A DNA stretch of 64,000 bases from Anaeromyxobacteraceae bacterium (GCA_047602405.1 JASGHJ010000002.1:3360001-3424000), one strand, 5' to 3'. Shown: positions 1,966 to 45,885, counted from the first letter of the stretch. Translations and numbers: made by a program. Notes: generated by a model not told the origin, from the letters alone.

Positions 1966-1995
1966 CGGGTGCGGATCGGCCCCGGACGCCCGGTC

Positions 1996-2121
1996 TGCGC
2001 GAACGCCGGGCAGGACGGCGTCGCCCGCTGCCCGCGAGCCGGGCAACCTCCGCCGGATCGTGACGGCGCGCGCGCGCGGGGAAGCCCGCGGGACGGGATC
2101 GGCCTGCCCGGAGGACGCGCA
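1996..2121. promoter_or_regulatory. Three NtrC-like 17-bp TGC-N11-GCA sites
   Basis: TGCGCGAACGCCGGGCA (1996-2012), TGCCCGCGAGCCGGGCA (2029-2045), TGCCCGGAGGACGCGCA (2105-2121), upstream of the sigma54 promoter. Confidence 0.5.
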
Positions 2122-2163
2122 GCGGCGGCGCCGGAGCGGCCGGCTGCCGGGCCAGGCGCGGCG

Positions 2164-3552: not shown

Positions 3553-3651
3553 GCTTCCCTCCGGACGGACAGTCTACGCCCGCCCGGCGCCGGCCTTCCG
3601 TCCCAGGTTCGCGGCCGTGGGCGTTCCTCCCCCACGCCGGGCGTCCCTCGA

Positions 3652-4311
3652 TCACCCGACGGTGTCGGCGTAGGTCATCACGAGGTACAGCACGCTCTCG
3701 CCGCCCGCGCGGTTCCGGTACACGTGCGGGCGGTCCGCCTCGAAGACGATCGCATCGCCGGCGGAGAGCAGCTCCTTCTTGCCCTCGACCTCGATCTCCA
3801 CGGCCCCGGAGGCCACGACGAGGTTCTCGGTCGTGCCGGGGTTGTGGGCGTCCGCCTTCTCGACCCCGCCGGACGCGAGGCGCAGCTCGTAGAACTCGAC
3901 CCGGCGCGGCTCGTCGAACGGGAAGAGCGCCCGGGAGCTGAAGGAGCCGTCGGCGCTGCGGAGCAGCTTCGCCTGATCGGCGCGCAGCACGTGGGGGCCG
4001 GCGGACCCGCGGGCGCTGATGAGGGCCGAGAACGGCACGCCCAGGGCGGACGAGATCTTCCAGAGGACGTTGATGGTCGGGGCGCTCTGGCCGAGCTCGA
4101 TCTGCCCGAGCATGGCGCGCGACACGCCGGAGAGCTGGGAGAGCCGCTCGAGCGAGAGGCCGCGGTGGCTGCGCAGGCGGCGCAGGTTGCCGCCGACGAT
4201 GGGGGTGAGGTCCTGGGCCGGCGGGGGCGCGCCCTCGCGCTCCGGGGTGGGCCCCGCCGCCGGCCGGGTCGCCGCCCGGCGCCGCTTCGTCGTCTCCCGC
4301 GCGTTCTTCAT
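3652..4311 (-). CDS. XRE-family HTH regulator with cupin domain
   Basis: GNLRRLRSHRGLSLERLSQLSGVSRAMLGQIELGQSAPTINVLWKI; cupin with AHNPGTTE and FEADRPHVY. Confidence 0.92.
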   Translation of the reverse strand: MKNARETTKRRRAATRPAAGPTPEREGAPPPAQDLTPIVGGNLRRLRSHRGLSLERLSQLSGVSRAMLGQIELGQSAPTINVLWKISSALGVPFSALISARGSAGPHVLRADQAKLLRSADGSFSSRALFPFDEPRRVEFYELRLASGGVEKADAHNPGTTENLVVASGAVEIEVEGKKELLSAGDAIVFEADRPHVYRNRAGGESVLYLVMTYADTVG

Positions 4312-4349: not shown

Positions 4350-5353
4350 CGCACGAGACCGCCCGCGGCCCCTGGCGGCTGACCCTCGTCACGAACCCGG
4401 ACGACTGTAACCTCGCGTGCGCGATGTGCCCCTGCTCGGCCCCGCGCCCCGCAGCCCGGCCGCGCAGGATGGATCCCGCGCTCGCGCTCGCCCTCCTCGA
4501 CGAGCGGCGGGGCTCCCACCTCGTGGAGGTCATCCCCTCCACGATGGGCGAGCCGCTCCTCTGGGCGGGCCTGCCGGCCCTCCTGGACCGCTGCGCCACC
4601 CTCGGCTTCGCCGTGAACCTCACCACGAACGGTACCTGGCCGGGGCTCGGGGTGGCCGGATGGGCGGCGAAGCTGCTCCCGGTCCTGTCCGACGTGAAGG
4701 TCTCCTGGAACGCCGCGACGCGGGCGACCGCCGCCGTCGTGATGCAGGGCCTCGACCTCGCGCGCGCCGAGGCGGACCTCGCGACCTGGGCCGGCCTGCG
4801 CGACGCCCACGCCGCCGCGGGCCACCGCCGCCCGACGCTGTCGTTGCAGGTCACCGTCCAGCGCGCGAACGTGGACGAGGTCCCCGCGATCGTCGCGCTC
4901 GCGGCGCGCCTCCGGGTGGACCGGGTGAAGCTGAACCACGTGCAGCCGCGCCCGGGGCTCGCCGTGACGACGGAAGGCTCCCTGCTCCGCGACGCGCGCG
5001 GCCTCGCGCGCTGGAACCGCGCCGTGGAGGCCGCCCACCGCGCCGCGGAGGCCTCGGCGAGGAACGGCTGGCCGCTGCGCGTCGAGAACGCGGTCCCGCT
5101 CCGCGAGGACCCGGACGACCGGGTCACGAGGGGCCGGTGCCCGTTCCTGGGCAGGGAGGCCTTCGTCCACTTCGACGGCCGCCTCGCCCCCTGCCCTCAC
5201 CCGGAGGCCGCCGCGCTCGGCGCCCTCGGCTCGGTGGCGGACGCGCCGCTCGGAGACCTCTGGGAGTCGGAGGCGTTCCGCGCGCTGCGCGACGGCTGGC
5301 CCTCCCACCCGCTCTGCCGGGCCTGCGCCTTCCGGGCGCCGGGCGGGGCGTGA
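4343..5353 (+). CDS. Radical SAM protein with SPASM/twitch domain
   Basis: CNLACAMC (CxxxCxxC), GEPLL, LTTNG; C-terminal CPF...DGRLAPC...CRAC; TTG start after GGAGG. Confidence 0.9.
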   Translation: MSTHETARGPWRLTLVTNPDDCNLACAMCPCSAPRPAARPRRMDPALALALLDERRGSHLVEVIPSTMGEPLLWAGLPALLDRCATLGFAVNLTTNGTWPGLGVAGWAAKLLPVLSDVKVSWNAATRATAAVVMQGLDLARAEADLATWAGLRDAHAAAGHRRPTLSLQVTVQRANVDEVPAIVALAARLRVDRVKLNHVQPRPGLAVTTEGSLLRDARGLARWNRAVEAAHRAAEASARNGWPLRVENAVPLREDPDDRVTRGRCPFLGREAFVHFDGRLAPCPHPEAAALGALGSVADAPLGDLWESEAFRALRDGWPSHPLCRACAFRAPGGA

Positions 5354-5368
5354 ACACGCGTGCCCCCG

Positions 5369-5519
5369 CCGTGGGCATCGGTGTCCGTGGGAGCCCTCCC
5401 CGTGGGCATCGGTGTCCGTGGGAGCCCTCACCGTGGGCATTGGTGTCCGTGGGAGCCCTCCCCGTGGGCATCGGTGTCCGTGGGAGCCCTCGCCGTGGGC
5501 ATCGGTGTTCGTGGGAGCC
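5369..5519. repeat. Tandem array of five 31-bp units
   Basis: Unit CCGTGGGCATCGGTGTCCGTGGGAGCCCTCN starting at 5369, 5400, 5431, 5462, 5493 (last partial). Confidence 0.95.
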
Positions 5520-5766
5520 AAACGGGCCTCCGCGACAGCGCTTGCTCGGACGGGTTTGAGACGGAACAGATCGCCGGAACCGTGGCTGTTCCACGGCGGT
5601 GATCGCGCAGCACGCCTGCGGACCATGTGCGCGTGACGGCGTCGTGCGCTCGAGCGCACGGCGCCGTCCCCGCGCGATGGTTCCTTGGCCTGCATTGCGA
5701 GATGTGGAGACGGTACCTCGCCCGTCGCTCGCTGCGCGCTGCTGCGGAGGCCCGTATGGCTCTCGG
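5510..5766 (+). repeat. ~250-bp structured element, copy 1 (MITE-like or ncRNA)
   Basis: Terminal IR AAACGGGCCTCCGC / GCGGAGGCCCGTAT; homologous along its length to the reverse complement of 5932-6190. Confidence 0.8.
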
Positions 5767-5931
5767 GCGTGGAGGACTGACGTCGGCCGTGACTGCTGGG
5801 TGCTGATGAACGACCAACGATGGACGATGGGCGATGGGCGATGGGCGTGTGGCAGTTTGCCCGCCGCATCTTCTTCACCATCAGTTCCGCACTTGCACCC
5901 CAGCATCATCGGCCGGCCTCAGGCCGCTACC

Positions 5932-6190
5932 TCCGAGGGCGAAACGGGCCTCCGCAGCGGCGCGCAGCGAGCGACGGGCGAGGTTCCGTCTCCACATCTG
6001 GGCATTGCAGGCCAAGCGACGAGGGCGTGTGACGGCGCCTGGCGCTGCGCGCAAGGCGTCGTCGCGCGCAACTCGCGTGCAGGCCTGCTGCCACGATCAC
6101 CGCCCTGGAACAGCAACGGTTCCGGCGATCTGTTCCGTCCCAAACCCGTCCGAGCAAGCGCCGTCGCGGAGGCGCGTTTCGCCCCCACGG
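5932..6190 (-). repeat. ~250-bp structured element, copy 2 (inverted)
   Basis: Reverse complement shares GCGCTTGCTCGGACGGGTTTG, GACGGAACAGATCGCCGGAACCGT, AGATGTGGAGACGG and CCTCGCCCGTCGCTCGCTGCGCGC with copy 1. Confidence 0.8.
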
Positions 6191-6206
6191 CACCGACCGC
6201 CGTCGA

Positions 6207-6239
6207 CCGCTCGTCCTTCGACGAGCTCAGGACGAACGG
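6207..6239 (+). repeat. REP-like palindrome (CCTTCGAC...GCTCAGG family)
   Basis: CCGCTCGTCCTTCGACGAGCTCAGGACGAACGG; related copies at 37264, 60020 and 48905. Confidence 0.7.
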
Positions 6240-6267
6240 GCACGGGCGAACGGAGAGGGCCCCCGCC

Positions 6268-6913
6268 TCACGCCCGCTCGACGCGGATCGCGTCCTCGAG
6301 CTCGTTCACGGGCGGCGTCGCCGCGCCGGGCTCGCGGGGGAAATGCACCGCCAGGCGGGCTCCGCAGAGCGCGATGGCCTCGACGAACCCGCCGGCGGGG
6401 TCGCCGGTCCCGAGCCGGGCCGTGAGCGCGCGGACGGCCTCGCTCCAGCCCGCCTCGCCAATCTTCTCGTGGATGCCGCGGTCGCCGAGGACGATCGCCT
6501 CGCGCTCGAAGACCGAGGCGAACACGAGCACGCCGGTGCCCTCGGCCGTCCGGTGCAGGCCGTGCTCGTGGAAGGCGCGCAGCGCCCGGGCGTGCACGGC
6601 CTCGTCCATGGAGCGCCGCCCCGCGAGGACCCGCTCGAATCGGATCCCATGCGCCGAGGAGGACGCCCAGGAACCCCGCGGCGAGCTGGACCGCGACGAG
6701 GCCCACCACGCCACCCTCGGGGTGCAGCACGAGCCACAGCCCGGTCGCGAGCGCCCCGAGGGCGAGGCCGCCGCGGGCCCGCGTCTCCGGGTAGGGGTCG
6801 CTCTTCTCGACCACCACCGGCACGATCTGCCCGCGCGAGAGCGCCTCCGCGCGGCGCACCGCCTCCTGCACCCGCGCCCGATCGGCGTCGCCGAAGGCCC
6901 TGTCGAAGTCCAC
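6268..6913 (-). CDS. TPM domain membrane protein, apparent frameshift near 6640
   Basis: VRRAEALSRGQIVPVVVEKSDPY in one frame continues as ARALRAFHEHGLHRT...GVLVFASVFEREAIVLGDRGI...VNELED in another; typical third gene of lemA-TPM-TPM. Confidence 0.8.
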
Positions 6914-6924
6914 GCGCGCGCCTC

Positions 6925-7696
6925 CTACCAGCGCCCCGAGGCGCCACCGCCCGAGAACCCGCCGCCACCTCCGGACCAGCCGCCGCCGCCGCCCCCGCCG
7001 CCGAAGCCGCCGAACCCGCCGCCGCCGATCCAGGGGCCGCCGCCACCCCACCAGAACCGGCGCCGGCGCCGGCCGAAGCCGAACACGCCGCGCAGCACCG
7101 AGGTGAGGACGATGAACGCGAGGAACGCCGCGAGCGGGAACTGCCCCGGGCGGCGCGCCGGCTGCGACCGCCGCGGCGCGGGGAGGTCCTGGACGGAGGC
7201 GCCGAGCGCGCTCAGGATTCTGGTGGCCCGCGTCGAAGAGGCCGTCGCCGTAGCGCCCCTCGCGGAAGGCCGGCGCGATCGCGTTGCGGATGATGCGGGA
7301 CGACTGCACGTCGGTGAGCGCGCCCTCGATGCCGCCGCCCACCTCGATGCGGACCGCCCGGTCCTGGACGGCGACCACCACGAGCACGCCGTCGTCGCAA
7401 TCCCGCGTCCCGAGCCGCCAGGCCTCCGCGACGCGCATCGAGAACGCCTCGATGGCCTCACCCTCGGTGGTCGGCACGAGCAGGAGCTGGAGCTGCGGAC
7501 CGGCGCCGCCGTTCGAGGCCTTGCCCGCGCGGGCGAGCTCCTCGAGGCGGGCGACGTCGGCGCGCGCCAGCACGCCCGCGCGGTCGACGACCGGGCCGGT
7601 GAGGGCCGGGACCGCGACCTCCGCGCGTGCCGGCCCGGCGGCGAGCGCCGCGAGGGCGAGCGCGCCCGCGGCCGCGAGGGTGCCGAGGCTGCGCAT
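6925..7696 (-). CDS. TPM domain (YgcG-like) protein with Gly-rich tail, apparent frameshift near 7225
   Basis: Signal peptide, VVDRAGVL, DDGVLVVVAVQDRAVRIEVGGGIEGALTD; C-terminus GGGGGFSGGGASGRW in another frame. Confidence 0.85.
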
Positions 7697-7707
7697 CGGG
7701 CGCGCCG

Positions 7708-8298
7708 TCACTTCCCGAAGTTGACCTTCGGGGCCTCGGCCGCGTTCGCGGTCGTGGCCGTGAACTGCGGCTTGGGCTGCTTGTGGTACATGAGCCCGTT
7801 CGTCCAGCTGGTGGGCGGCACGGTCACGAGGTTGTTGAAGCCCTGCACCTGCTCGATGTACCGGCGGCGGGCGGTGGCGATCCGGTTCTCGGTGCCCTCG
7901 AGCTGCGCCTGCAGGTCGCGGAAGTTCTCGTTGGCCTTGAGCTGCGGGTAGTTCTCGGCGACCGCGAGGAGCCGCCCGAGCGCGCCGCCGAGCTCCTGCT
8001 GGGCGGCCTCGAACTTCTTCAGGTTCTCGGGGGAGAGCTGGTCGGCGGTGATGTTCACCTGGGTGGCCCGCGCGCGGGCGGCCACGACCGCCTCGAGCGT
8101 CTCCCGCTCGTGGGCCGCGTAGGCCTTCACCGTCTCGACGAGGTTCGGCACGAGGTCCGCGCGGCGCTGGTACTGGTTCTCCGTCTCCGCCCAGGCGGCG
8201 GCGACGGCGTTCTCGGCCTGCGGGATCGACTGGAGCCCGCAGCCGGCGAGCAGGACGGCCGCGACGGGGACGGCGAGCCACGAACGGGTGCTGGTCAT
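7708..8298 (-). CDS. lemA: LemA family lipoprotein
   Basis: Lipobox LAGC; NQYQRRADLVPNLVETVK, ENYPQLKANENFRDLQAQLEGTENRIATARRRY. Confidence 0.95.
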   Translation of the reverse strand: MTSTRSWLAVPVAAVLLAGCGLQSIPQAENAVAAAWAETENQYQRRADLVPNLVETVKAYAAHERETLEAVVAARARATQVNITADQLSPENLKKFEAAQQELGGALGRLLAVAENYPQLKANENFRDLQAQLEGTENRIATARRRYIEQVQGFNNLVTVPPTSWTNGLMYHKQPKPQFTATTANAAEAPKVNFGK

Positions 8299-8360
8299 GC
8301 GGCCAAGCTAACGCACCCCGGAGAAGGCGCAAGCGGCGATACGGCGCGGCGGGGTTCCCC

Positions 8361-8906
8361 CTACCGCACGTCCACCGAAAGGATGCTCGAACCCGGCGGG
8401 CACCAGATCGGGTTCACCGGCGTGTAGACGAAGAGGACCGGCACCGACGCGGGGCAGAGCGAGCAGACCGTGTCGGGCGGCCCCGGCTCGAAGCGGACCT
8501 CGACGGCGTCGGGGTGCCAGGTCCACTGCGCGTCGCAGTCGGGCTCCGGGGCGAGCTGCAGCACGGGCAGGTTCGGCGTGGACGTGGGGTTCGAGAGCAG
8601 GACCTGCGCCTGCGAGATGAAGGTCGCCGAGGTGGTCCAGAGCTTCACGGTCTGCCCGCACGACTCGAGCACCACGAACGCACCGTGGGTGCGGTTCGCG
8701 CACGAGCCCGTCGTGAAGTCGGTGCAGGCACCGGAGACGCACGCCTTGCCGGAGCCGCAGACCGTGCCGCACGCGCCGCAGTGCTCGGGGTCGGCGGCGA
8801 GGTCGACGCAGGCGCCGTTGCAGACCTCGAGGCTGCCCGGGCACGGCTGGGCGTTCATGCAGCCCGCGAGGGCGGCGAGCGCGGCGGCGGAGAGGAGGCG
8901 GCGCAT
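8361..8906 (-). CDS. Lipoprotein with Cys-rich (Stig1-like) module and BP74-like C-terminal domain
   Basis: MRRLLSAAALAALAGC; CNGACVDLAADPEHCGACGTVCGSGKACVSGAC; WTWHPD...VC..CP...WCP. Confidence 0.7.
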   Translation of the reverse strand: MRRLLSAAALAALAGCMNAQPCPGSLEVCNGACVDLAADPEHCGACGTVCGSGKACVSGACTDFTTGSCANRTHGAFVVLESCGQTVKLWTTSATFISQAQVLLSNPTSTPNLPVLQLAPEPDCDAQWTWHPDAVEVRFEPGPPDTVCSLCPASVPVLFVYTPVNPIWCPPGSSILSVDVR

Positions 8907-8932
8907 CGCGCGAGATCGTAGCACCGGTCCGG

Positions 8933-9589
8933 CTACTCCGTGCTCTCGAACCAGCGGAAGTCGACGAGCACCGCGGCCCCCAGCAGGAGCCGGCGCAGGG
9001 GCGCGTCGGCGCGGCCGAAGCTCACGAGGAAGGTGTCGGCGTCGGTGAAGAGCTCCGAGACCGCGCCCGACCACCGCTTCTCGATCCGCCCGAGCTCGAG
9101 GTCCGACTCGCCGCGCGTCACCACGAACGTCCACGGCCGGAACCACGGGCCGGTGATGCGGGCGAGGAGCCGTCCGTCGGGCGCGACCACGTCGAGCCTC
9201 CGCCGGAGCAGGGAGAACCGCTGCTGGATCGTGCCGAGCGGCTGGCCGCCGTCGCCGGTGACCTCGAGGCGCGCGAACAGCCAGGTGAACGGCCGGTGGA
9301 GCTGGAGCGCGCGGGGCCCGGCGCCGCCGTCGGAGGCGGCGACGACGCGCATGTCGAACGGGCGGTTCGCCTTCAGGAACCAGCGCGCGAGCAGCCGGCC
9401 CGCACCGCCCGTCTCCTCGAGGGCCCAGCCGGCGAGCGCGCCGTCCTCGGTGAGGAGGGCGTAGCGGTTGGGGGACTCCCAGCCGACGAGCTCGGCCCAG
9501 TCGCGCGCCTGCCGGACGACGAGGCGCGGCGCGGCGTCGAGGGTGGTCGCGAGGGGGGCGGTGACGGAGGGCAGGGCGGCGCGGCGCAT
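8933..9589 (-). CDS. Scramblase/LURP-one-related (tubby C-terminal-like) protein
   Basis: ELVGWESPNRY, LGTIQQRFSLLRRR, GRIEKRWSGAVSELFTDADTFLVSF, LLGAAVLVDFRWFE. Confidence 0.85.
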   Translation of the reverse strand: MRRAALPSVTAPLATTLDAAPRLVVRQARDWAELVGWESPNRYALLTEDGALAGWALEETGGAGRLLARWFLKANRPFDMRVVAASDGGAGPRALQLHRPFTWLFARLEVTGDGGQPLGTIQQRFSLLRRRLDVVAPDGRLLARITGPWFRPWTFVVTRGESDLELGRIEKRWSGAVSELFTDADTFLVSFGRADAPLRRLLLGAAVLVDFRWFESTE

Positions 9590-9632
9590 GCCGCATCCTA
9601 CCCTACCCTCCGCCCACCTCGGCGCCCTGGCC

Positions 9633-12284
9633 TCAGCGCACCACGAGCTGGCCGATCGCGAAGTCGCCGAGCTCGGCGGTGTCCTTCCCGAGCCGGTCGC
9701 GCACGGCCGCGCGCGCGCCCGCGGCGAGCGCCGTCCCGTCGAGCACCGTGCCCGGGCTGGCGCCGGTCGCGAGCCTGAGGCGGACCGAGAACACGGTCGC
9801 GCCGAGGGCGAGCGTGGTGTCGGTGGTCTTCGCCCCGGCGCCCGCCGCCTTCTGCGACACGCCCGCGAGGAGCACGTTCGCCGCGGGGCCGGTGGTGGCG
9901 AGGGCCGCGGCCACCGCCTTCGGCGCCGTGCCCAGCGTGAACGCCACCGTCGCCGGCTCGACGAGGAGCGTCGCGTCGGCGACCACCTTGCCCGGCGCGA
10001 GCGGCAGCGCGAGGCCGGCCCCGTAGGAGGCGACGAGCCCGTTGCCGGTCACGAGGTCGAGCTGGACGACCGACGCCGTGGACGCGGCGTTGCGCACGAG
10101 CCGCACGCGGCCGCCCGGCGCGGGGTCGGTGTAGACGAGCCCGTGCACGGTCGAGGTGGCGGAGGCGGTGCGCGCGAGCGCGGTCGCGGTGAGCGACTGC
10201 GCGCCGAGCGTCGCGAACGTCATGGGCACCGGGATGCTCGGGGGCTGCGTGCCGTCGAGCACGATCGCCGGGGGCGCGGCGGCCCCCGGGTCCGAGGTCG
10301 CGAAGGTGACGGTCGCCGCGAACGCCGGGACCGCGTTGCCGTAGGCGTCCTTCACGGTGAGCGTCCCGGTGACCTCCTCCCCCGCGTTCGCGTCGGCGGG
10401 CAGCGAAAGCGCGAGGAGCGCCGCGCCGGGGTGCACCGTGAGCGTGGCGGTGGCGTCCGTCAGGCCGGCGGAGGAGGCGGTGAGCGCGGCCGTGGGCGCC
10501 GTCTCGAGCGTCACCGTCGCGAGCCGCACGCCGGCGTCGGCAGGCCCGGCGGCCGGCAGCCGCGCCGCGGGGTCGTCGGAGGTGAACGCGACCGCGCCGG
10601 TGAAGCCGGTGGCGAGGTTGCCGTGGAGGTCGCGGGCCTCCGCGGTGACCGCGAAGGCGTCGCCGGCGTCCACCGCGGAGGGCGCGCCGGCGAGCGCGAG
10701 GGCCACGGCCGGGGCCGGGACGATCGGGTGCTCCACCCGCCCCGTCAGCGCGCCCGAGGAGGCGAGGATCGTCTGGTCGCCGGCCGTGTAGAAGCGCACG
10801 CCGCTCACGGACCTCACGCCCTGGTCGCCGGGGGCGAACGCGACGTCCGCGATGGAGGGCGCGCCGAGGTCGGTGTTCGCGAAGGAGACCGTCCCGCCGA
10901 ACCCGGTGGCGACGTTGCCGTACGCGTCCCGCACCGTGGCGGTCAGGACGTGCGCGTCGTCGACGACGTAGCTGCCCGCGAGCTCGAGCCCGATGGAAGC
11001 CGGTGCGCCGTGGCCGACGGTGACGGTGGCGGTCGCCGGGGGGAGCCCCGCGGCGGTGGCCGTGACGGCGTGGGCCCCGGCGGTGCGGAGGGTCACGCCG
11101 ACGGCCGCCCTGCCCGCGTCGCCGGGGGCGAGCGTCACCGCGGCGGGCAGCTCCGCCGCGGGGTCGTCGCTCGCGAGGCCCACCGCGCCGGTGAGGCCGG
11201 CCGCGTTGCCGAAGGCGTCCCGCGCCTGCAGCACGAGGGCGAACGGCGTCCCGGCGGCGGTGGAGGCGGGCGCGCCCGAGAGCGCGAGGGAGGCCGGCGG
11301 ACCGGCGAGGACGGTCTTCGACACGCGCGCGACGAGCGCGCCGGAGGTCGCGGTGATCGCCTGCTCGCCGGCGGTGCGGAACTTCACCCCGGGCACGACC
11401 TTCACCCCGAGGTCGGGCGCCGCGAACGTGACGGCCGCGATCGCGGGCGCCGCCGCGTCGGTGCCGGTGAAGGAGACCGTCCCGGTGAACGCCGTGGCGG
11501 CGTTGCCGTACGCGTCGAGGGCGCGGACGGTGAGCGTGTGGGCGGCGTCGGCGACGCCGGTGCCCGCGAGCTCGAGGCCCAGCGAGGCCGCGGGGCCCGG
11601 CGCGACGTCGACGTTCGCGGTGACGGACGGGAGGCCGGTGACGGCCACCGAGACGGTGCGGGTGCCCGGGGTGCGCAGGCTCAGGCCGACGGCCTTCTCG
11701 CCCGCGTCGCCGGTCGCGAAGGTGACCGGCCCCGGCAGCACGGCGGCCGGGTCGTCGCTCGTGAAGGTCGCGGTGCCGGCGAAGCCGGTCGCGACGTTGC
11801 CCGACGCGTCCCGCGCCGTGAGCGTCGCCGCGATGGGCGCGCCCGGGGCGGTGGCCGCCGGGACGCCGGCGAGGACGACCGCGGCGGCCGCGCCCGGCGC
11901 GACCGTGGTCCCGGCGGCGCCGCGGACCCCCGCCGTGTCGGCGGCCGAGACGAGCTGCGCCCCCGCGGTCTTGAACGTGACCTGCACCGTCTTCGTGCCG
12001 GCGTCCGCTGCCGCGAAGACGAGCGGCGCCGGCAGCACGGCCGCCGCGTCGGTCGAGGTGAGGGTGACGGTGCCCGTGTAGCTCGCGAGCGTGCCGCCCG
12101 CGGTGCTCGCGACGGCGACGGTGACGCTCGCCGGCGTGCCCGCGGTCGCCGTGGCCCCGAGGGTCACGACGAGGCCCGCCGGCCCGGGCGGCGTCGGCTT
12201 CGGCTTCGAGTCCTTGGAGCAGGCCGCGAGCGCCGCGAGCGCGAGGGCGGCCACGACGAGGCGCGTGGAGGGGGTCGTCTTCAC
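9633..12284 (-). CDS. 883-aa lipoprotein with tandem Ig-like repeats and cohesin-like C-terminal domain
   Basis: GTG overlaps the upstream TGA (GTGA); lipobox LAAC; about 7 repeats with DAYGNxATGFxGTVxFTSxDP...TAGxQTIxA. Confidence 0.8.
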   Translation of the reverse strand: MKTTPSTRLVVAALALAALAACSKDSKPKPTPPGPAGLVVTLGATATAGTPASVTVAVASTAGGTLASYTGTVTLTSTDAAAVLPAPLVFAAADAGTKTVQVTFKTAGAQLVSAADTAGVRGAAGTTVAPGAAAAVVLAGVPAATAPGAPIAATLTARDASGNVATGFAGTATFTSDDPAAVLPGPVTFATGDAGEKAVGLSLRTPGTRTVSVAVTGLPSVTANVDVAPGPAASLGLELAGTGVADAAHTLTVRALDAYGNAATAFTGTVSFTGTDAAAPAIAAVTFAAPDLGVKVVPGVKFRTAGEQAITATSGALVARVSKTVLAGPPASLALSGAPASTAAGTPFALVLQARDAFGNAAGLTGAVGLASDDPAAELPAAVTLAPGDAGRAAVGVTLRTAGAHAVTATAAGLPPATATVTVGHGAPASIGLELAGSYVVDDAHVLTATVRDAYGNVATGFGGTVSFANTDLGAPSIADVAFAPGDQGVRSVSGVRFYTAGDQTILASSGALTGRVEHPIVPAPAVALALAGAPSAVDAGDAFAVTAEARDLHGNLATGFTGAVAFTSDDPAARLPAAGPADAGVRLATVTLETAPTAALTASSAGLTDATATLTVHPGAALLALSLPADANAGEEVTGTLTVKDAYGNAVPAFAATVTFATSDPGAAAPPAIVLDGTQPPSIPVPMTFATLGAQSLTATALARTASATSTVHGLVYTDPAPGGRVRLVRNAASTASVVQLDLVTGNGLVASYGAGLALPLAPGKVVADATLLVEPATVAFTLGTAPKAVAAALATTGPAANVLLAGVSQKAAGAGAKTTDTTLALGATVFSVRLRLATGASPGTVLDGTALAAGARAAVRDRLGKDTAELGDFAIGQLVVR

Positions 12285-40057: not shown

Positions 40058-40813
40058 ATGACGACCGCCTCCTGGAAGACGGCCCTCCTCACCCCGGTGC
40101 AGGTGGTGCTCACGCTCCTGCTCTTCGCGGAGGTGATCCTGGTGTGCGGCGTCGCGCTCGCGCCGGGGGTCGCGCTCCTCGGGTGGGCGGCCGACCGGCT
40201 CCCGGCGGAGGGGCTCCCCCGCGCGGTGGGGCTCGGGGTGGCCGGCGCCGCCGGCTACTTCGCCTTCGGGCTGTCGCTCCTCTTTCTCCTGCCGGTGGTG
40301 CGCTGGCTCACCTTCGCGACCGGCACGCCGGTCGGGCGCTTCCCGTTCCTGTCGATGGGGGCGTGGCGGTGGGCGAGCTACAACGCGCTCACGCTCGTGT
40401 TCCGGTTCGCCTTCGTCAACTGGGTGCGGGTGACGCCGTTCCTGCCGCTCTACCACCGGCTCATGGGCGCGAGGATCGGCAAGCGCGTGCAGATCAACAC
40501 CGCGGTCATGGCCGACCAGAACCTCGTCGAGATCGGCGACGACTCGGTCATCGGCGGGGACGTCACGCTCGTCTGCCACGCCGCGGAGCGCGGGAAGCTC
40601 GTCACCGCGCCGGTGAAGATCGGCAGGAACGTCACCGTGGGGCTCATGGCGGTGATCTTCCCGGGCTGCACCATCGGCGACGGCGCGGTGATCGCCGCGG
40701 GGGCGGTGCTGTCGAAGGGCGCCAAGGTCGGCGCGGGCGAGGTCTGGGCCGGCGTGCCGGCGCGGCGGGTGGGCGGGAAGAGGAAGGCTCCCACTCACGA
40801 CGAGCCGGCGTAG
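40058..40813 (+). CDS. Membrane-anchored hexapeptide-repeat acyltransferase
   Basis: Two N-terminal TM segments; LMGARIGKRV, EIGDDSVIG, VKIGRNVTVG, IGDGAVIAAGAV, WAGVPAR. Confidence 0.85.
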   Translation: MTTASWKTALLTPVQVVLTLLLFAEVILVCGVALAPGVALLGWAADRLPAEGLPRAVGLGVAGAAGYFAFGLSLLFLLPVVRWLTFATGTPVGRFPFLSMGAWRWASYNALTLVFRFAFVNWVRVTPFLPLYHRLMGARIGKRVQINTAVMADQNLVEIGDDSVIGGDVTLVCHAAERGKLVTAPVKIGRNVTVGLMAVIFPGCTIGDGAVIAAGAVLSKGAKVGAGEVWAGVPARRVGGKRKAPTHDEPA

Positions 40814-40854
40814 GCGTCCGGAGTACGCTGACGCCACGCACATTTCCGTTCCCT

Positions 40855-41808
40855 ATGTTGCCCACCCAAACCGCATCTCGGCCGTCAGCAGGTACGACGC
40901 GGTACCTGCTCGACGGGCTGTCGGTGATCGCTCAGTACGACACGGCCGGCACACGGCAGGCTTGGTACACGCAGTCGCTCGCGCGGATCGACGAGGTGCT
41001 GAACGTCGTCAACGCGAGCGGGAAGTTCTGGTACCAGAGCGACGCCCTCGGCTCCGTCTACGCGCTCACCACCCAGGGCGGGGAGGTCCGAGCTCGCGGC
41101 GGCTACGACGTGTTCGGGGAGTCGGTTGCCCTCTCAGGCACGGCCGTAGGACAGCCGTTCGGGTTCACGGGGCGGGAGCACGAGGCAGACTCGGGGCTCG
41201 TGTATGCGAGGGCACGCTATGCCCGCCCCGCTTCCGGTCGCTGGCTGGCGCCGGATCCCCTCGGGTTTGTCGACGGACCCAATAGATACGCATACGTACA
41301 GGCCAATCCGACCATCTATACCGATCCTAGCGGGCAGGTCATATTCGTGGATTCAGTCCGCAAAGGCATTGGCATGTTCGCCGCTTCAGCGGAACAGGAA
41401 GCAGGCATCCGATTGATCGGAGTCGGGCTAGTGGACTTCAACCCGATGATCGTCGCGTACGGTCTCTCTCACCTGATGACCGGCATCTATGTCGAGGTTC
41501 TCAACGGGGGGTGTCCAGCGCTCACTCCTCAGGGACGAGGACTTTGGGTCGAGGAGCGGGTCTCCAACCTGTTCCGCAGTGCTGGGTACGTAGTCCAGCG
41601 AGGTCGACGCATCATGACCCCGTTCGGCGAGCGCGTCGTCGACCTTGTCGTGTTCCGTCCTGGAACCACCGTTCTCAAGTTCGAAGACGCGCTCTTCACG
41701 ATCGAGGTCAAGTTCGGCCGATTCGCGAAGTGGGACAAGATTCAACGAGTCAAGGATCTGTTCATCGAGAACGTAAGCAGTGTCATCCACTTTGTTGTCC
41801 AAGGGTGA
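40855..41808 (+). CDS. Orphan RHS core tail + C-terminal toxin A (PD-(D/E)XK nuclease-like)
   Basis: FGFTGREHEADSGLVYARARY, YAYVQANPTIYTDPSG (DPxG cleavage motif); C-terminal E...VDLV...IEVK; lacks the N-terminal RHS shell. Confidence 0.85.
   Translation: MLPTQTASRPSAGTTRYLLDGLSVIAQYDTAGTRQAWYTQSLARIDEVLNVVNASGKFWYQSDALGSVYALTTQGGEVRARGGYDVFGESVALSGTAVGQPFGFTGREHEADSGLVYARARYARPASGRWLAPDPLGFVDGPNRYAYVQANPTIYTDPSGQVIFVDSVRKGIGMFAASAEQEAGIRLIGVGLVDFNPMIVAYGLSHLMTGIYVEVLNGGCPALTPQGRGLWVEERVSNLFRSAGYVVQRGRRIMTPFGERVVDLVVFRPGTTVLKFEDALFTIEVKFGRFAKWDKIQRVKDLFIENVSSVIHFVVQG
40880..41198 (+). repeat. Left arm of a 319-bp inverted repeat (RHS core tail), partner 44062-44380
   Basis: Near-identical to the reverse complement of 44062-44380, with scattered mostly synonymous differences. 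Confidence 0.92.
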
Positions 41809-41814
41809 GCTGCT

Positions 41815-42219
41815 ATGAGCGTGTCGCGCGTGATCGGGAAGGAATTGGAACGAGCCCTCGCCCCGCACGGGTTTGCGCGGCGTGGCTTGACTTTCGTCCT
41901 ACACAGGGAGCCCAACTACTGGGTCGTGCGCGTGTTCAACGACAAGAGGCGAGGCGTGGGGCTTGTCGTGAGGGTTATTTCCGAGCTCGAGTCGCGCGCC
42001 AAGGGCTTACCTGTCGCGGATCCCTTCCGAGACGGTGTTTCAAACTGGGAGTCGGGGCCGGCCTTCTTGTCGGCGCCTGAGTTTGCCGAGTGGGAGATTG
42101 TGTCCAACGAAAGCGATGCGGCTCTGCTCGCCACTCGCTGGGCAAGATGGGTGACGGAAGTCGGCTTCAGATTCTTCTTGGAGGGCTCTCGCGAACTGAA
42201 TGAGCGTTATCGCGCTTAG
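41815..42219 (+). CDS. Putative immunity protein for toxin A (DUF4304-like)
   Basis: 134 aa, starts 6 nt after the toxin stop; IGKELERALAPHGFARRG N-terminus. Confidence 0.7.
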   Translation: MSVSRVIGKELERALAPHGFARRGLTFVLHREPNYWVVRVFNDKRRGVGLVVRVISELESRAKGLPVADPFRDGVSNWESGPAFLSAPEFAEWEIVSNESDAALLATRWARWVTEVGFRFFLEGSRELNERYRA

Positions 42220-42350
42220 GTCCACACTCCAGGACAACCGGCTCGTCGGCATCGCGCTGCCGAACGGCGTCTCGAATGCCTTCGAGTGCGACGCCAACGG
42301 GCTGAGGACGAAGAAGACCGACTCGACCGGAACGACGCGATTCCTGGTGC
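42220..42350 (+). pseudogene. RHS/YD core fragment
   Basis: QDNRLVGIALPNGVSNAFECDANGLRTKKTDSTGTTRFLV ends at the GTTR(Y/F)L position where both orphan toxins begin. Confidence 0.8.
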
Positions 42351-42669
42351 AGAACCGCGCTATTGAGTCCTGTGCGCCAGATGAAAGGCGCTAGGTCGAC
42401 CGGTACCGCGTCGTACCGGTCGTGGTCACTAAGTCTGAGCCTGCCCCTTCTTACGCTTGGTGAGGTACCTGTCGAGGAACAGGCCCGCCGTGCCAAGCCA
42501 TGAGGCCCCTGGCCAACACCCAAAGCCGGCGATGCTGGCGTTGGAGGTGGCCTGGATAGGCTCCGGCCGCTGCGGTCAGGAATGCCAAGAGCGCGAGAAT
42601 CGTTAGCCAGCCAGAATGAGTTGTGGGCAGCGTCTTGCCGGCGTTTATCGGGTGTCAGCCCGGCCCGAC

Positions 42670-43359
42670 TCACGCTCGCACAACCCACCGGACATTGCTG
42701 ACCCGCAGAGACTCGACTGCCGTCTTGAATTCCTGTGACGCACCGATCCGGAACGTGTATCCCTCATAGAACAGGTCTCCGGCGGGGACGATGGTCGTCG
42801 TTGGGCCATCGGGTACATTAGGATATCCGCATTCTGCGCACTCTTTCGCTGCCCTTTCGATGGCCAGCAGGGGTTCATAGTCGGGGATGAGTTCAACGTA
42901 GTCGGCTGCCCCACCACCCACCATGGTAGTGGGGCACATCGCGAATCCGGATAGCCCATTTACCTGTTCTGCCACCCGTCGTGACACCACCAGTGTTGCG
43001 GGAATCGTCCAGATGAAGTCCGCAAGCGTCCGGGGCGCGTCCACGATGGTCGCCGGCACCCAGGCATCGCCGGGGCGAAGATCAGGCTGAGTAAGATTCG
43101 CCTTAGCAGTCGCTGTAGCGACCCGTGCAGAGAGAGCCCGGAACACCTCCGGTTGCACGGGACTCGGGTCGTTCAACTCGGGCCATTCTAATAGCTCGGT
43201 CGGCAGAGGCACCGGGATCACACGCCTTCCGGCCCAGGTGCGTCCGCAAACCGGACATTCGACTCCCGGCATCCCTATCGCATGCTCGGCCTTGCCAGCG
43301 CGGCCACCTACGCCTGCCGACCCGGGCTCAATTAGATACGAGTGCCCTGATGGGAGCAT
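42670..43359 (-). CDS. Double-CXXCG motif immunity protein (SitI6/Gmx_para_CXXCG-like)
   Basis: PGVECPVCGRTWAG and CAECG; LRPGD; directly downstream of toxin B. Confidence 0.8.
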   Translation of the reverse strand: MLPSGHSYLIEPGSAGVGGRAGKAEHAIGMPGVECPVCGRTWAGRRVIPVPLPTELLEWPELNDPSPVQPEVFRALSARVATATAKANLTQPDLRPGDAWVPATIVDAPRTLADFIWTIPATLVVSRRVAEQVNGLSGFAMCPTTMVGGGAADYVELIPDYEPLLAIERAAKECAECGYPNVPDGPTTTIVPAGDLFYEGYTFRIGASQEFKTAVESLRVSNVRWVVRA

Positions 43360-43436
43360 CGTGTGCCCTCACTCTCTACCCCTACAGCGAGTTCGGTTGC
43401 TTACCCACCTAAGTCCCGCGGCGCACCGCCGCTCGC

Positions 43437-44380
43437 TTACCGCAAGGTAACTACGTCGAGCGCTTTCCACAGCTCGAGGCCGAACTCTCGCATCATCTTC
43501 GTGAGCTGCACCAACACCTCCACCCGCGTAGCGTTCGGTCGGGCCCGGAAGAACTCGCGCCACACCACGTTCCAGCTGTCGGGTCCGTTGTGTATGCCGA
43601 CGCCCTTCTTGTTGTGCAGGCTGGTCGGAAGTCGGATCTTGTACTTTTCGATATCAATGCCAAGCCGCTGGAAGTCTCTCCTGAATTCGCGCGGGAGCAG
43701 ATGATGCTCTTGCGGCTTCCCCATCCATTCTCCGCACCTCGCGCACATCAGGACCATTTCGATGCCGCCGAACAGATAAGCAATGCCAAGCTCGGCGAAG
43801 TCCTCGTCGATGCCGCTGTCGAACGTCGAGGAGACAGCCAGGTACCTAATGCCCACAGTCATGAATGAGATGCCGGCCAGACACGTAACAGCGCGTCCCA
43901 GCGCGATGGCGTACACTGAATACCGTCCGGTCGGATCGCTGAGGAGCGTCGGCCGTCCAGTGACGTAGCCATACAGACCAGGGCCGTCCACGTCGCCGAG
44001 CCGATCCACCTGCGACCATCGGCCGAAGGCCGCCTGCATGTAGCGGTCTCGGTAGTACGTCAGCCCCGAGTCCGCCTCGTGCTCCCGCCCCGTGAATCCG
44101 AACGGCTGCCCGACGGCCGTCCCCCCGAGCGCGACGGACTCCCCGAACACGTCGTAGCCGCCGCGCGCGCGGACCTCACCGGCCTGGGTGGTGAGCGCGT
44201 AGACGGAGCCGAGGGCATCGGCCTCGTACCAGAACTTCCCGCTCGCGTTGACGACGTTCAGAACCTCGTCGATCCGGGCGAGACTCTGCGTGTACCAAGC
44301 CTGCCGCGTGCCCGCCGTGTCGTACTGAGCGACCACCGAGAGCCCGTCGAGCAGGTACCGCGTCGTACCTGCTGATGGCC
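43437..44380 (-). CDS. Orphan RHS core tail + C-terminal toxin B (SitA6/DUF2380, HH-type nuclease-like); start unclear
   Basis: FGFTGREHEADSGLTYYRDRY, RPTLLSDPTG; C-terminal EHHLLPREFRRDFQRLGIDI...LH...IHNG..WNVVWREF. Confidence 0.82.
44062..44380 (-). repeat. Right arm of the 319-bp inverted repeat
   Basis: Partner of 40880-41198. Confidence 0.92.
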
Positions 44381-44530
44381 CGGGTGAGCCCGCAACTGGC
44401 AGAGTCGGCCAGTTCGACTCGAACCCAGACCTTCCCCAGGAGCTCTCCGCAAGGACCCCCACGGCAAGATTCTAGCCCCTGTTCGTGCGGCCTTTGCCCT
44501 TGAGTCCGTCGAGCAGCAGATGCACTCGCG

Positions 44531-44562
44531 AAAAATGGAAGGGGCCCGCCGAGGCGGGCCCC
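44531..44562 (-). terminator. Intrinsic terminator of uraA
   Basis: GGGGCCCGCC-GA-GGCGGGCCCC followed on the minus strand by TTCCATTTTT. Confidence 0.75.
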
Positions 44563-44589
44563 CCAAGGGTGCTGCGCGGTTCCGTCCGT

Positions 44590-45885
44590 CTACCCGGCGG
44601 CCTTCTCCGCCGCGCCGTCCGCCTTCGCGTTGAGCGACTTCGGCAGCACGAGGTTGAGGAGGACGCCGACGTAGGTCGCGAGCGACATCTCGCCGACCTC
44701 GAGCTGGCCGATGTGCAGCTTCGCGCCGCCGATGCCGATCACGAGGATGACGGAGGCGATGATGAGGTTGCGCTTCTCGGAGAAGTCGATGCCCGCCTCG
44801 ACGAGCATGCGGATGCCGGCGGAGGCGATGATCCCGAAGAGCAGGATGCAGATGCCGCCCATGACCTGCACCGGGATGGAGCGGATCAGCGCGCCCACCG
44901 GCGGGAGGAACGACATCACGATGGCGATGACCGCGGCGAGGCCGATGACCCACACGGAGAAGACGCGGGTGATCGCCATGACGCCGATGTTCTCGCCGTA
45001 GGTCGTGGACGGCGGGCCGCCGAGCATGCCGGCCACCGCGGTCGCGACGCCGTCGCCGGCGAGCGAGCGGTGCAGGCCCGGGTCCTTCACGAAGTCGCGC
45101 CCGACCACCTTGTTCGTCACGATGAGGTGGCCGATGTGCTCGGTGATGACGACGAGCGACACCGGGGCGAGCAGCAGGATCGCGCCGAGGTCGAACTTCG
45201 GGAAGACGAACGGCGGCACCGCGAACGCCGAGGCGTTCTTCACGCCGGAGAGGTCCACCTGGCCGGCGAGGGCGGCGACGACGTAGCCGCCGATGATGCC
45301 GATGAGCACCGGGATGACGCCGAGGAAGCCCTTGAAGAAGACCGCGGCGAGCACCGCGATGGCGAGGGAGGCGAGCGCCACCATGAAGTACGACTGGTGG
45401 TACTCCTGCGTCGCGCCCTTCGTCGCCATGCCGACGGCCACGCCGGCGAGGCCGAGGCCGATGACCATGACGACCGAGCCGATCACCACCGGCGGGAGCA
45501 GCACGTCGATCCACTTCGTGCCGAACTGCGCGATGAGGAGCGCCACGACGATGTAGATGATGCCCACCGTCACGCAGCCGCCCATCGCGACCGCGATGCG
45601 GTCGGGCCCGGCGATGTTGCCGGGGGCCACGCCGAGCAGCGCCGTGAGGCCGCTGATGAACGCGAAGGAGGAGCCGAGGTAGGCCGGGATCTTGCCCTTC
45701 GTGATGAGGATGTAGATGAGCGTGCCGACGCCCGACGAGAAGAGCGTCACGCTCGTGTCGAGGCCGACCAGGAAGGGCACGAGCACCGTCGCGCCGAACA
45801 TGGCGAAGAGGTGCTGCAGGGACAGCGGGAGCGCCTGCAGGAACGGCGGGCGCTCGTGGACGTCGATGGTGCGCGTGGAAGCCAT
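44590..45885 (-). CDS. uraA: Uracil/xanthine permease (NCS2)
   Basis: SLQHLFAMFGATVLVP, IPAYLGSSFAFI, EHIGH, TTYGENIGVMAITRVFS. Confidence 0.93.
   Translation of the reverse strand: MASTRTIDVHERPPFLQALPLSLQHLFAMFGATVLVPFLVGLDTSVTLFSSGVGTLIYILITKGKIPAYLGSSFAFISGLTALLGVAPGNIAGPDRIAVAMGGCVTVGIIYIVVALLIAQFGTKWIDVLLPPVVIGSVVMVIGLGLAGVAVGMATKGATQEYHQSYFMVALASLAIAVLAAVFFKGFLGVIPVLIGIIGGYVVAALAGQVDLSGVKNASAFAVPPFVFPKFDLGAILLLAPVSLVVITEHIGHLIVTNKVVGRDFVKDPGLHRSLAGDGVATAVAGMLGGPPSTTYGENIGVMAITRVFSVWVIGLAAVIAIVMSFLPPVGALIRSIPVQVMGGICILLFGIIASAGIRMLVEAGIDFSEKRNLIIASVILVIGIGGAKLHIGQLEVGEMSLATYVGVLLNLVLPKSLNAKADGAAEKAAG

Follow-up and report, generated by a model that had tools for sequence, protein, structure and literature searches.

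Palindromes at the ends of two orphan rhs toxin/immunity modules in an Anaeromyxobacteraceae genome look like copying scars rather than sites of a dedicated shuffling enzyme

Introduction

Orphan rhs-CT/rhsI modules are truncated 3′ ends of rhs genes that keep the core and are followed by a varied toxin domain and then an immunity gene; in the passages cited they are further described as low in GC, of horizontal origin and without translation signals (PMC2935791, PMC3150448, PMC3967940). Displacement of the C-terminal region is given there as the accepted model for orphan rhs arrays (PMC2935791), and reuse of the tips is ascribed to homologous recombination over the shared core, which in Salmonella covers 522 bp at 95% identity (PMC3967940). 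Here we analyse an island of such modules in a 64,000-nucleotide stretch of an Anaeromyxobacteraceae bacterium genome (GCA_047602405.1, JASGHJ010000002.1:3360001-3424000; hereafter the window, with positions counted from its first letter). The island carries two RHS tip-toxin genes, each with a putative immunity gene, and its RHS sequences begin or end at four short sites built on the core GACGCG, called S1 to S4 (Table 1).

Orphan toxin/immunity modules are a reserve of new weapons and antidotes for bacteria, and the setting of their boundaries is usually ascribed to homologous recombination without further detail. The modules studied here share with the described ones their truncated rhs ends, the order of core, toxin domain and putative immunity gene, the low GC, the horizontal origin and the lack of translation signals. 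Unlike in the described arrays, there is no main rhs gene in the locus or elsewhere in the genome, the modules are convergent and not in tandem, both start at one precise motif, and perfect palindromes stand at their boundaries. Full-text literature searches returned no description of perfect palindromes at orphan rhs boundaries, which is weak evidence of absence. An earlier reading of this DNA, made from the sequence alone, had proposed that a dedicated recombinase or a hairpin-dependent mechanism moves RHS tips at these sites. In our analysis the palindromes look like scars of DNA copying at a near-palindromic stretch of the toxin gene, and not like the sites of a dedicated shuffling enzyme.

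Two independent palindromes at the boundaries of the RHS tips

The island holds two convergent orphan modules, A and B, neither of which has an RHS shell. The RHS tips of the two open reading frames match TIGR03696 (Rhs_assc_core) at 78 and 58 bits, are 82% identical over about 105 residues, and then diverge abruptly at about 41200 and 44060, beyond which they are unrelated. At the nucleotide level the two cores make up an inverted repeat of 319 nt with 91% identity, in which the homology of both tips starts at 40880 and 44380. RHS homology itself begins at 40885 in module A and 44375 in module B, and by blastx there is no RHS match in the flanks of the tips. Between the two cores the synonymous divergence (dS) is 0.28 and the ratio of nonsynonymous to synonymous divergence (dN/dS) is 0.15, with differences distributed 5/4/20 over the three codon positions. 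Both modules are open-framed, with ATG or GTG in frame 10 and 29 codons before the motif. A further RHS fragment of 38 residues follows immunity gene A (blastx E 1.5e-14 to the full-length RHS of a relative, G005) and ends at S4; it is the start of a lost next orphan module. The geometry given in the sequence-only reading holds: cassette A lies between the directly oriented S1 and S4 and cassette B between S2 and S3, both orphan RHS genes start at the site, and the fragment after immunity gene A stops at it.

The sequence also reads exactly as that reading had it for S1, S2 and S3, including the 5-bp outer stem of S1, CCGTC/GACGG, with one bulged C. In frame, the site encodes S-A-G-T-T-R-Y-L-L-D-G at the start of two open frames, in keeping with the statement that it codes for GTTR(Y/F) within the RHS core. 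The right arm of S1 is conserved rhs coding sequence (Y-L-L-D-G), and the left arm codes for S-A-G-T with three rare codons. The left arm of S3 is rhs-like (T-G-T-T-R-Y), with only about 30 nt of rhs-like sequence upstream on its strand, and its right arm reads GTACC-GG-TCGAC against GTACC-TGC-TCGAC in rhs, one base fewer, which shifts the frame to a stop (Y-R-S-T-stop).

We folded the sites as single-stranded DNA, each against 200 shuffles. S1 reached -16.3 kcal/mol (z -4.7, none of the 200 shuffles as good), S2 -11.5 kcal/mol (z -2.2, 4 of 200) and S3 -11.8 kcal/mol (z -2.4, 3 of 200). S4, which had been listed as a degenerate fourth site, folds no better than expected by chance (-4.3 kcal/mol, z +0.6; 148 of the 200 shuffles do as well), is therefore not a hairpin, and pairs at 5 of 9 positions, as ordinary rhs alleles do. 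The exact 14-mer GTACGACGCGGTAC has three copies in the 6.16-Mb genome, all of them inside the island. As an outside control we took the 16-mer GGTACGACGCGGTACC in metagenomes, where it has at least 111 other occurrences, nearly all in unrelated contexts and one in a YD repeat (L131). Among the 111 matches listed, two carry the palindrome 3 bp past the 5-bp arms, five carry it 2 bp past them and the others 0-1 bp; an extension of 4 bp or more is seen in none of those listed, against 4 bp (and 5 more after the bulge) in S1 and S2 and 5 bp in S3. The same 111 listed matches yielded no further rhs boundary sites. The palindromes of S1, S2 and S3 are real and far beyond chance. S1 and S2, with their common bulge and common upstream GGCC(G/A)TC, are copies of one site, which leaves two independent palindromes and not four.

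The motif in related rhs genes

Close homologues of the tip were found only in G005, a metagenome-assembled genome of the same genus, and on one small metagenome-assembled contig (L050), in a scan of the genome collection with the tip protein and in searches of the order; none of them has the palindrome. At the motif the nearest full-length rhs gene, that of G005 (2375 codons, 73% tip identity), reads TCC GCG GGG GCG ACG CGG TAC, and L050 reads like it. An orphan of the same G005 genome has GCG GGC GGC ACG ACG CGG TAC, and two orphans of G032 have ...GGC ACG ACG CGG TTC. Set in the S1 register, such natural alleles form 4-5 of the 9 pairs (five rhs sequences, the one on G005:C8 counted by hand), against 9 of 9 in S1 and S2 and 10 of 10 in S3. 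The palindrome is absent at the homologous position in all five rhs sequences from relatives, and the four homologues that were folded, among them orphans of G005, L050 and G032, gave no predicted hairpin (z -0.25 to +1.2). Of 363 genomes of the order, only that of the window has an S1-like 24-mer when at most 3 mismatches are allowed. The sequence-only reading had proposed to look for conservation of the palindrome at synonymous positions across rhs homologues and for GTAC-GACGCG-GTAC-like palindromes in relatives; the first fails on the 4-5 of 9 pairs in the five rhs sequences, and for the second an S1-like 24-mer turned up in 0 of 362 other genomes of the order.

The mismatches of the natural alleles fall exactly on the three third-codon positions of S-A-G. 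The codons found there in S1, TCA, GCA and GGT, account for 3 of 127 Ser, 20 of 317 Ala and 23 of 295 Gly codons in the related full-length rhs, and for 0 of 30, 0 of 88 and 0 of 83 in the two flanking host genes; each of these rare codons brings in just the base needed to pair with the conserved right arm. Outside GGTAC the arms differ between the sites, AGCA in S1 and CGACC in S3, and each is the exact complement of its own rhs-coded partner. The longest invariant DNA run of the tip is the site block CGACGCGGT.CCTGCTCGA.GG: in an alignment of seven sequences, in which proteins of 48% identity are represented, 20 of its 22 columns do not vary.

Where other orphan modules begin

In order to place the boundary among other modules, we aligned 63 short RHS-tip homologues (174-555 residues) from a public protein collection to the full-length RHS of G005 and expressed the start of homology in residues from the motif. 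Homology starts at -293 to -16 in 29 proteins, at -9 to +2 in 10, at +7 to +13 in 10 and at +24 to +91 in 14. Those starting at +7 to +13 have no N-terminal overhang, and one of them is the window's own gene call, for which the true boundary is 0. In all, 20 of the 63 starts lie within the 23 residues (-9 to +13) around the motif, where about 3.6 would be expected if starts were evenly spread; the 20 include 2 proteins of the window itself and four that are orthologues of one another, the start of a gene call stands only roughly for the boundary, and the bounds set on protein length restrict the upstream distance at which a start can fall. The contexts of the motif-bounded proteins differ among organisms (M-SAG, MAL-STG, MTPG-STG, RRV-DG), and therefore several events are involved. 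This clustering, together with the fact that no other invariant DNA block of the tip is as long, makes the motif a recurrent, non-random module boundary at the protein level.

The earlier suggestion that the motif marks the breakpoints of other orphan modules is borne out in part, by the 20 of 63 short proteins that begin near it; it does not hold for the relatives' orphans with readable DNA, which start upstream of it, by 74 residues in G005:C8, about 83 in L050 and up to about 380 in G028:C63.

Four orphan RHS tips from JGI metagenomes (P0021, P0030, P0034 and P0036) have a common 71-residue upstream stretch, come back into frame at RRVDG-TTRY, and carry a toxin domain that differs in each. 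The 71-residue stretch looks like RHS core in another frame, which would place a frameshift just before the motif; read this way, the group suggests a frameshift hot spot right before the motif together with toxin swapping behind a fixed boundary.

A proposed copying origin for the palindromes

Quasipalindromes are described in the passages cited as hot spots at which the nascent strand copies itself and leaves the repeat ‘perfect or more perfect’, often through complex changes or frameshifts, and a complex substitution that perfects a stem is given as the published signature of such template switching (PMC7202029). The differences seen here are clustered, and all of them go toward complementarity, with three third-position differences in S1 and TGC to GG completing the stem of S3. 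The change in S3 is a complex substitution plus the loss of one nucleotide, which perfects the stem and breaks the frame. Arms that vary from S1 to S3 and yet complement each its own partner are what templating within one strand predicts, and not what would be expected of a recombinase with a fixed target.

In the explanation that we favour, the site is the 5′ edge of the most conserved DNA block of the rhs subfamily, which codes for G-T-T-R-Y-L-L-D-G. This block is a weak natural quasipalindrome, in that the self-complementary GTAC is present twice, 6 nt apart, and codon positions 1 and 2 of S/A-G-T by chance complement those of Y-L-L; because GTAC is its own complement, GGT ACG ACG CGG TAC contains a built-in pairing nucleus. 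Intrastrand template switching during DNA synthesis would then have made the imperfect repeat perfect in this lineage. At S1/S2 the left arm would have been corrected to the complement of the right arm, with three third-position changes to rare codons, and the outer stem was possibly created by a small deletion. At S3 the right arm would have been corrected to the complement of the left arm, TGC becoming GG with a frameshift. That the changes ran toward complementarity, and not away from it, is probable from the comparison with homologues.

Module boundaries may collect at the block for two reasons. First, where rhs genes have diverged, it would be the minimal length of sufficient identity on which recombination can anchor. 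Second, the hairpin would favour stalling, strand slippage and illegitimate joining at its foot. A short, invariant and near-palindromic coding block may thus serve both as a homology anchor and as a hot spot of mutation and breakage that fixes module ends, and if this is true in other genomes it would explain why many modules of one rhs subfamily start at the same codon. We infer the template-switch origin, the anchoring role of the block and the absence of an enzyme dedicated to it from these comparisons, and we hold the whole, namely a relic, a natural quasipalindrome perfected by template switching and module boundaries that collect at the block, with about even confidence.

Several points weigh against this explanation. 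A single, identical capped boundary stands in both tip cores despite their dS of 0.28 and dN/dS of 0.15; these values make the boundary old and show that purifying selection kept acting on the modules, which is not what one would predict of a recent neutral scar. The boundary also recurs in at least four sequence contexts elsewhere, and a targeted mechanism fits this at least as well. The natural quasipalindrome is weak, with no predicted hairpin in the four folded homologues, and its fragility is assumed. Finally, all three corrected positions of S1 are synonymous, and selection for the hairpin could account for them.

Alternative explanations

A first alternative is that the hairpins are selected, functional parts of a long-lived, motif-bounded lineage of independently kept tip-only toxin/immunity modules, the shared boundary being due to common descent and selection and not to a mutational hot spot. 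They might act as a stem at the 5′ end of the mRNA, making the transcript more stable or holding down translation of the toxin, or as a structure at the 3′ end. Purifying selection between the tips (dN/dS 0.15) is consistent with it, as are the open frames that both modules keep, with their in-frame ATG or GTG 10 and 29 codons before the motif, and the starts of other motif-bounded homologues 0-11 codons before the motif. Over the 35 nt of the site S1 and S2 show no difference where about 3 would be expected (P about 0.04), and orphan rhs elements are reported in the passages cited to act as toxin-antitoxin modules in Salmonella (PMC7043789). Against it, there is no promoter-like site in 40600-44700 and no Shine-Dalgarno sequence visible before either start, S3 follows 250 nt of non-coding DNA and is not terminator-like, the outer stem of S2 has already lost one pair, an RHS tip without shell has no known delivery route, and the orphans of G005, L050 and G032 have no hairpin. 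We consider selected hairpins possible but unlikely.

A second alternative is that the palindromes are snap-back caps made in the repair of broken DNA. Here a 3′ end in ...GTAC would fold on the upstream GTAC, prime 6-11 nt of synthesis and then be joined to unrelated DNA, so that truncation of rhs and the second arm would arise in one step. GTAC-N6-GTAC is available in every allele that has the Gly codon GGT, and at each site one arm continues as rhs and the other gives way to unrelated DNA within 0-7 nt; truncation and palindrome would be explained together. However, the left arm of S1 codes for S-A-G in frame, as natural alleles such as the full-length gene of G005 do, and is more likely derived from rhs than newly synthesised. 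The right arm of S3 likewise retains the rhs-like TCGAC, a 4-bp primer stem is very weak, and the same cap would have to stand in two tips that differ by a dS of 0.28. We rate this origin as improbable.

A third possibility is close to what the sequence-only reading had in mind: structure-specific recombination of an integron-like, Xer-like or HUH type, encoded elsewhere, would move tip/immunity cassettes, with a full-length rhs as acceptor. G-T-T-R-Y-L-L-D-G would then be a true exchange point, and the modules cassettes bounded by a single-stranded-DNA hairpin that is recognised by a recombinase or nuclease encoded elsewhere or by a host replication or repair activity. If this were so, cassettes could be excised, kept in reserve and joined in frame to whichever full-length rhs shell, an integron-like system within coding sequence, and the clustering of 20 of 63 starts in several sequence contexts would be its footprint. 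In its favour, each cassette runs from site to site in direct orientation, the arms vary yet keep pairing, with one bulged base in S1 as in attC, and orphan immunity arrays associated with a recombinase and with integron-like repeats are described for Bacteroidales in the passages cited (10.1101/471110). The boundary at the motif in 20 of the 63 short homologues also speaks for it.

The search for the enzyme and the acceptor argues the other way. A whole-genome profile search found no Phage_integrase, Resolvase or Y1_Tnp match in the window (DDE transposases were not searched), in agreement with the earlier statement that no recombinase is encoded there. The nearest matches, to PF00589 at 233 kb and a weak one to PF01797 at 143 kb, leave no tyrosine recombinase, integrase or HUH gene linked to the island, and no recombinase within 140 kb. 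Nor does any full-length rhs of the genome belong with these tips; outside the island there is a single RHS gene, of the SpvB/FG-GAP/RHS (Tc-like) kind, on the other contig, C1, with 30-35% tip identity. Furthermore, the palindrome is absent from 5 homologous rhs sequences and from 362 other genomes, RHS homology covers both arms of each site with no switch inside the core, the island edges are elsewhere, the cassettes are convergent and form no one-way array, and the arms of S1 and S3 differ and match each its own partner, which a fixed target does not predict. We therefore think such a system, and likewise a true exchange point at this motif, quite improbable. Of what the sequence-only reading put forward, the module boundary at the motif survives. 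For a dedicated recombinase there is no linked enzyme, no acceptor and no conserved palindrome; the explanation that we favour is hairpin-dependent in a loose way, by template switching at a quasipalindrome. If palindromes prove conserved at other motif-bounded modules, the cassette idea would be back in play.

One relative does have a recombinase next to an orphan rhs, and this can be counted for a dedicated system. In G005:C8 (L023), a gene for a tyrosine recombinase (3241-4305, plus strand, Pfam 133 bits) lies divergently to an orphan RHS module (1989-3410, minus strand), with a distance of about 125 bp to its 5′ end. However, this module lacks the palindrome and begins 74 residues ahead of the motif, and the recombinase family has no match at E 1e-40 or better in the window's genome and is not co-located with other rhs-tip matches. 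The gene may mark an integrative element that truncated or carries an rhs fragment. On a further contig of this genome, C225 (L185), an integrase lies 2.4 kb downstream of an rhs 3′ end. Linkage to an integrase as a general feature was rejected, as it is confined to these two cases.

Two other observations were made in these searches. Six weak matches to the Y1 (IS200/HUH) profile, of about 22-24 bits, are scattered over the genome (C2:3137187, 1325570, 2524469 and 3257262; C1:2221901 and 1420915); in four of them almost the same part of the profile is matched (about 24-26 to 107-109), in the other two different stretches. They may be a small paralogous family. The SpvB/FG-GAP/RHS gene (L001, G000:C1:2374500-2394422, at 5058-11181) lies about 8 kb short of the end of C1 and is split over two frames that overlap, 5058-8756 and 8413-11181.

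That the palindromes are a mere coincidence of codon choice, with neither history nor function, is hardly credible: the amino-acid motif alone does give 4-5 of 9 complementary positions, but three rare codons in a row each complete the stem (the product of their frequencies in the related rhs is about 1e-4), a second and different perfect 10-bp palindrome stands on the same core 1.5 kb away, and none of the 111 control matches listed reaches such an arm length.

The island and its gene content

The genome assembly comprises 2 contigs and is 98% complete. Compared with the relative G010, by blastn and by reading the junctions against its locus L043, the window contains an insertion of about 3.75 kb, from about 40778 to 44533. 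In G010 the gene for a hexapeptide transferase directly adjoins the terminator and permease, with 92-93% nucleotide identity on both sides, and window position 40777 corresponds to position 12812 of L043 and 44534 to 12823. The toxin and immunity genes have 58-62% GC against 74% for the genome. The four sites had been thought to mark the junctions of the island; its edges lie outside them, about 100 bp to the left of S1 and about 155 bp to the right of S2. Reading of the outer junctions against G010 revealed no repeats and no att-like sites, with GGAAGG the only microhomology. This hexamer is present at both junctions (40783-40788 and 44537-44542), overlaps GAAGGGG in the empty site of G010, and suggests an illegitimate insertion by microhomology. 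In the explanation favoured here, the two orphan rhs C-terminal toxin/immunity modules of the island came in by horizontal transfer and are inactive, a relic of the ordinary kind; the genome offers them no delivery shell. Its features are collected in Table 1.

Table 1. Coordinates in the window of the island, its neighbours, its modules and the motif sites
Feature	Position	Strand	Remarks
Inserted island	40778..44533	.	absent from G010; low GC
Left chromosomal neighbour, hexapeptide-repeat transferase	40058..40813	+	last codons altered by the insertion
Right chromosomal neighbours	44539..45885	-	terminator hairpin 44539-44564; xanthine/uracil permease 44590-45885
S1 hairpin	40887-40910 (with outer stem 40882..40916)	+	9-bp arms AGCAGGTAC / GTACCTGCT around GACGCG
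S2	44350-44373 (with outer stem 44344..44378)	-	inverted copy of S1, one G-to-A change in outer stem
S3	42397-42422	-	perfect palindrome with 10-bp arms, core GACGCG; isolated RHS micro-fragment of ~30 nt
S4	42324..42348	+	ordinary non-palindromic allele of the motif, GGA ACG ACG CGA TTC
Orphan module A	40855..41808	+	ATG 10 codons before motif; RHS tip TIGR03696; C-terminal domain without family match (putative toxin A)
Putative immunity gene A	41815..42219	+	134 residues; no family match; position after toxin
RHS core fragment DNRLVGIALPNG...FECDANGLRTKKTDSTGTTRFL	42233..42346	+	ends at motif (S4); RHS/YD repeat matches
Immunity gene B	42670..43359	-	SitI6-family double-CXXCG protein; Pfam PF09535, TIGR02264
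Orphan module B	43437..44462	-	RHS tip TIGR03696 fused to SitA6/DUF2380-like toxin domain
Left arm of the 319-nt inverted repeat of the tip cores	40880..41198	.	partner arm 44062-44380

By its domains cassette B is SitA6/SitI6-like; the gene downstream of module B is SitI6-like with a score below the curated cut-off, and the open reading frame downstream of module A, of 134 residues, has no family match. Between immunity gene B and S3, about 250 nt (42423-42669, minus strand) are without family match, and one frame contains the hydrophobic stretch GWLTILALLAFLTAAAGAYPG, which could be a small membrane peptide or a remnant.

A few candidates were set aside. A 15-nt repeat of the right arm near the right edge of the island, at 44502-44516 (14 of 15 identical to 44340-44354), was considered as the remnant of a third site and rejected, because chance repeats of that size are numerous here. 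A resemblance of ‘VRVELADSA’ to RHS core, in another frame just upstream of S2, has a blastx E of 1.8 and was not counted as evidence. A role of S3 and S4 as transcription terminators is not supported. Positions 42399-42424, within and beside S3, match positions 292-317 of the metagenomic L169 at 26 of 26 nt, between a divergent regulator-like (TetR) and a P450-like open reading frame; that intergenic region holds two operator-like palindromes, CGGTAC-N6-GTACCG. As this match, though unexpected, is a single case in an unrelated context, and probably fortuitous, S3 was not taken to be a mobile hairpin or an operator.

Comparison with known systems

Of what defines orphan rhs-CT modules, the locus has the C-terminal part of the RHS core with a variable toxin domain behind it, the N-terminal shell and delivery part being missing; a core shared with a full-length main rhs of the same genome is lacking. 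In the family of its toxin and immunity protein, module B resembles the SitA/SitI toxins of myxobacteria, which are described in the passages cited as delivered by outer-membrane exchange (PMC5562445). It differs from them in scoring below the curated cut-offs (34 against 86 bits and 32 against 100 bits) and in that its toxin domain is fused to an RHS tip and not to a lipoprotein leader.

The core sites of tyrosine recombinases (att/dif) have inverted arms around an asymmetric spacer of 6-8 bp, and S1, S2 and S3, with arms of 9-10 bp around the 6-bp GACGCG, share this layout; S4 does not. Arms are not conserved between partner sites as in att/dif (AGCA in S1 against CGACC in S3 outside GGTAC), a cognate recombinase is not at hand (the nearest PF00589 match being 233 kb away), and junctions do not fall inside the spacer: RHS-like sequence spans both arms of S1, S3 and S4 and homology ends 0-7 nt outside them. 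Integron attC sites and the rAID-1 arrays likewise delimit cassettes by imperfectly conserved, bulged palindromes and act as stores of toxin or immunity genes, according to the passages cited (10.1101/471110). Unlike in these, an integrase, an attI/Pc platform, a one-way array and a family of repeated sites are all lacking here, and the palindromes are inside the coding sequence of toxin genes. Of the integron triad of IntI, attI and cassette promoter, there is neither a recombinase in the window nor a promoter-like site in 40600-44700. The hairpins do have arms that differ and one bulged C, as attC sites have; only two of them are independent, they lie inside coding sequence, and the cassettes are convergent. 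As for IS200/IS605 or REP/RAYT elements, the site occurs in this island only, and PF01797 matches reach at most 24 bits, the nearest at 143 kb.

The closest likeness of the palindromes themselves is to mutation by template switching at quasipalindromes, in which, in the passages cited, a cluster of changes templated by the opposite arm, frameshifts included, makes an imperfect repeat perfect (PMC7202029). Unlike in the classical cases, the process is deduced here from comparison of homologues, and the changes coincide with module boundaries, which the classical process alone does not produce. Homology-facilitated illegitimate recombination combines a short homologous anchor with an illegitimate join at microhomology and is normally described for natural transformation. 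Mutations associated with quasipalindromes and template switching were reportedly described by Ripley in 1982. An invariant block that serves as anchor, together with the GGAAGG at the island junctions, would fit homology-facilitated illegitimate recombination.

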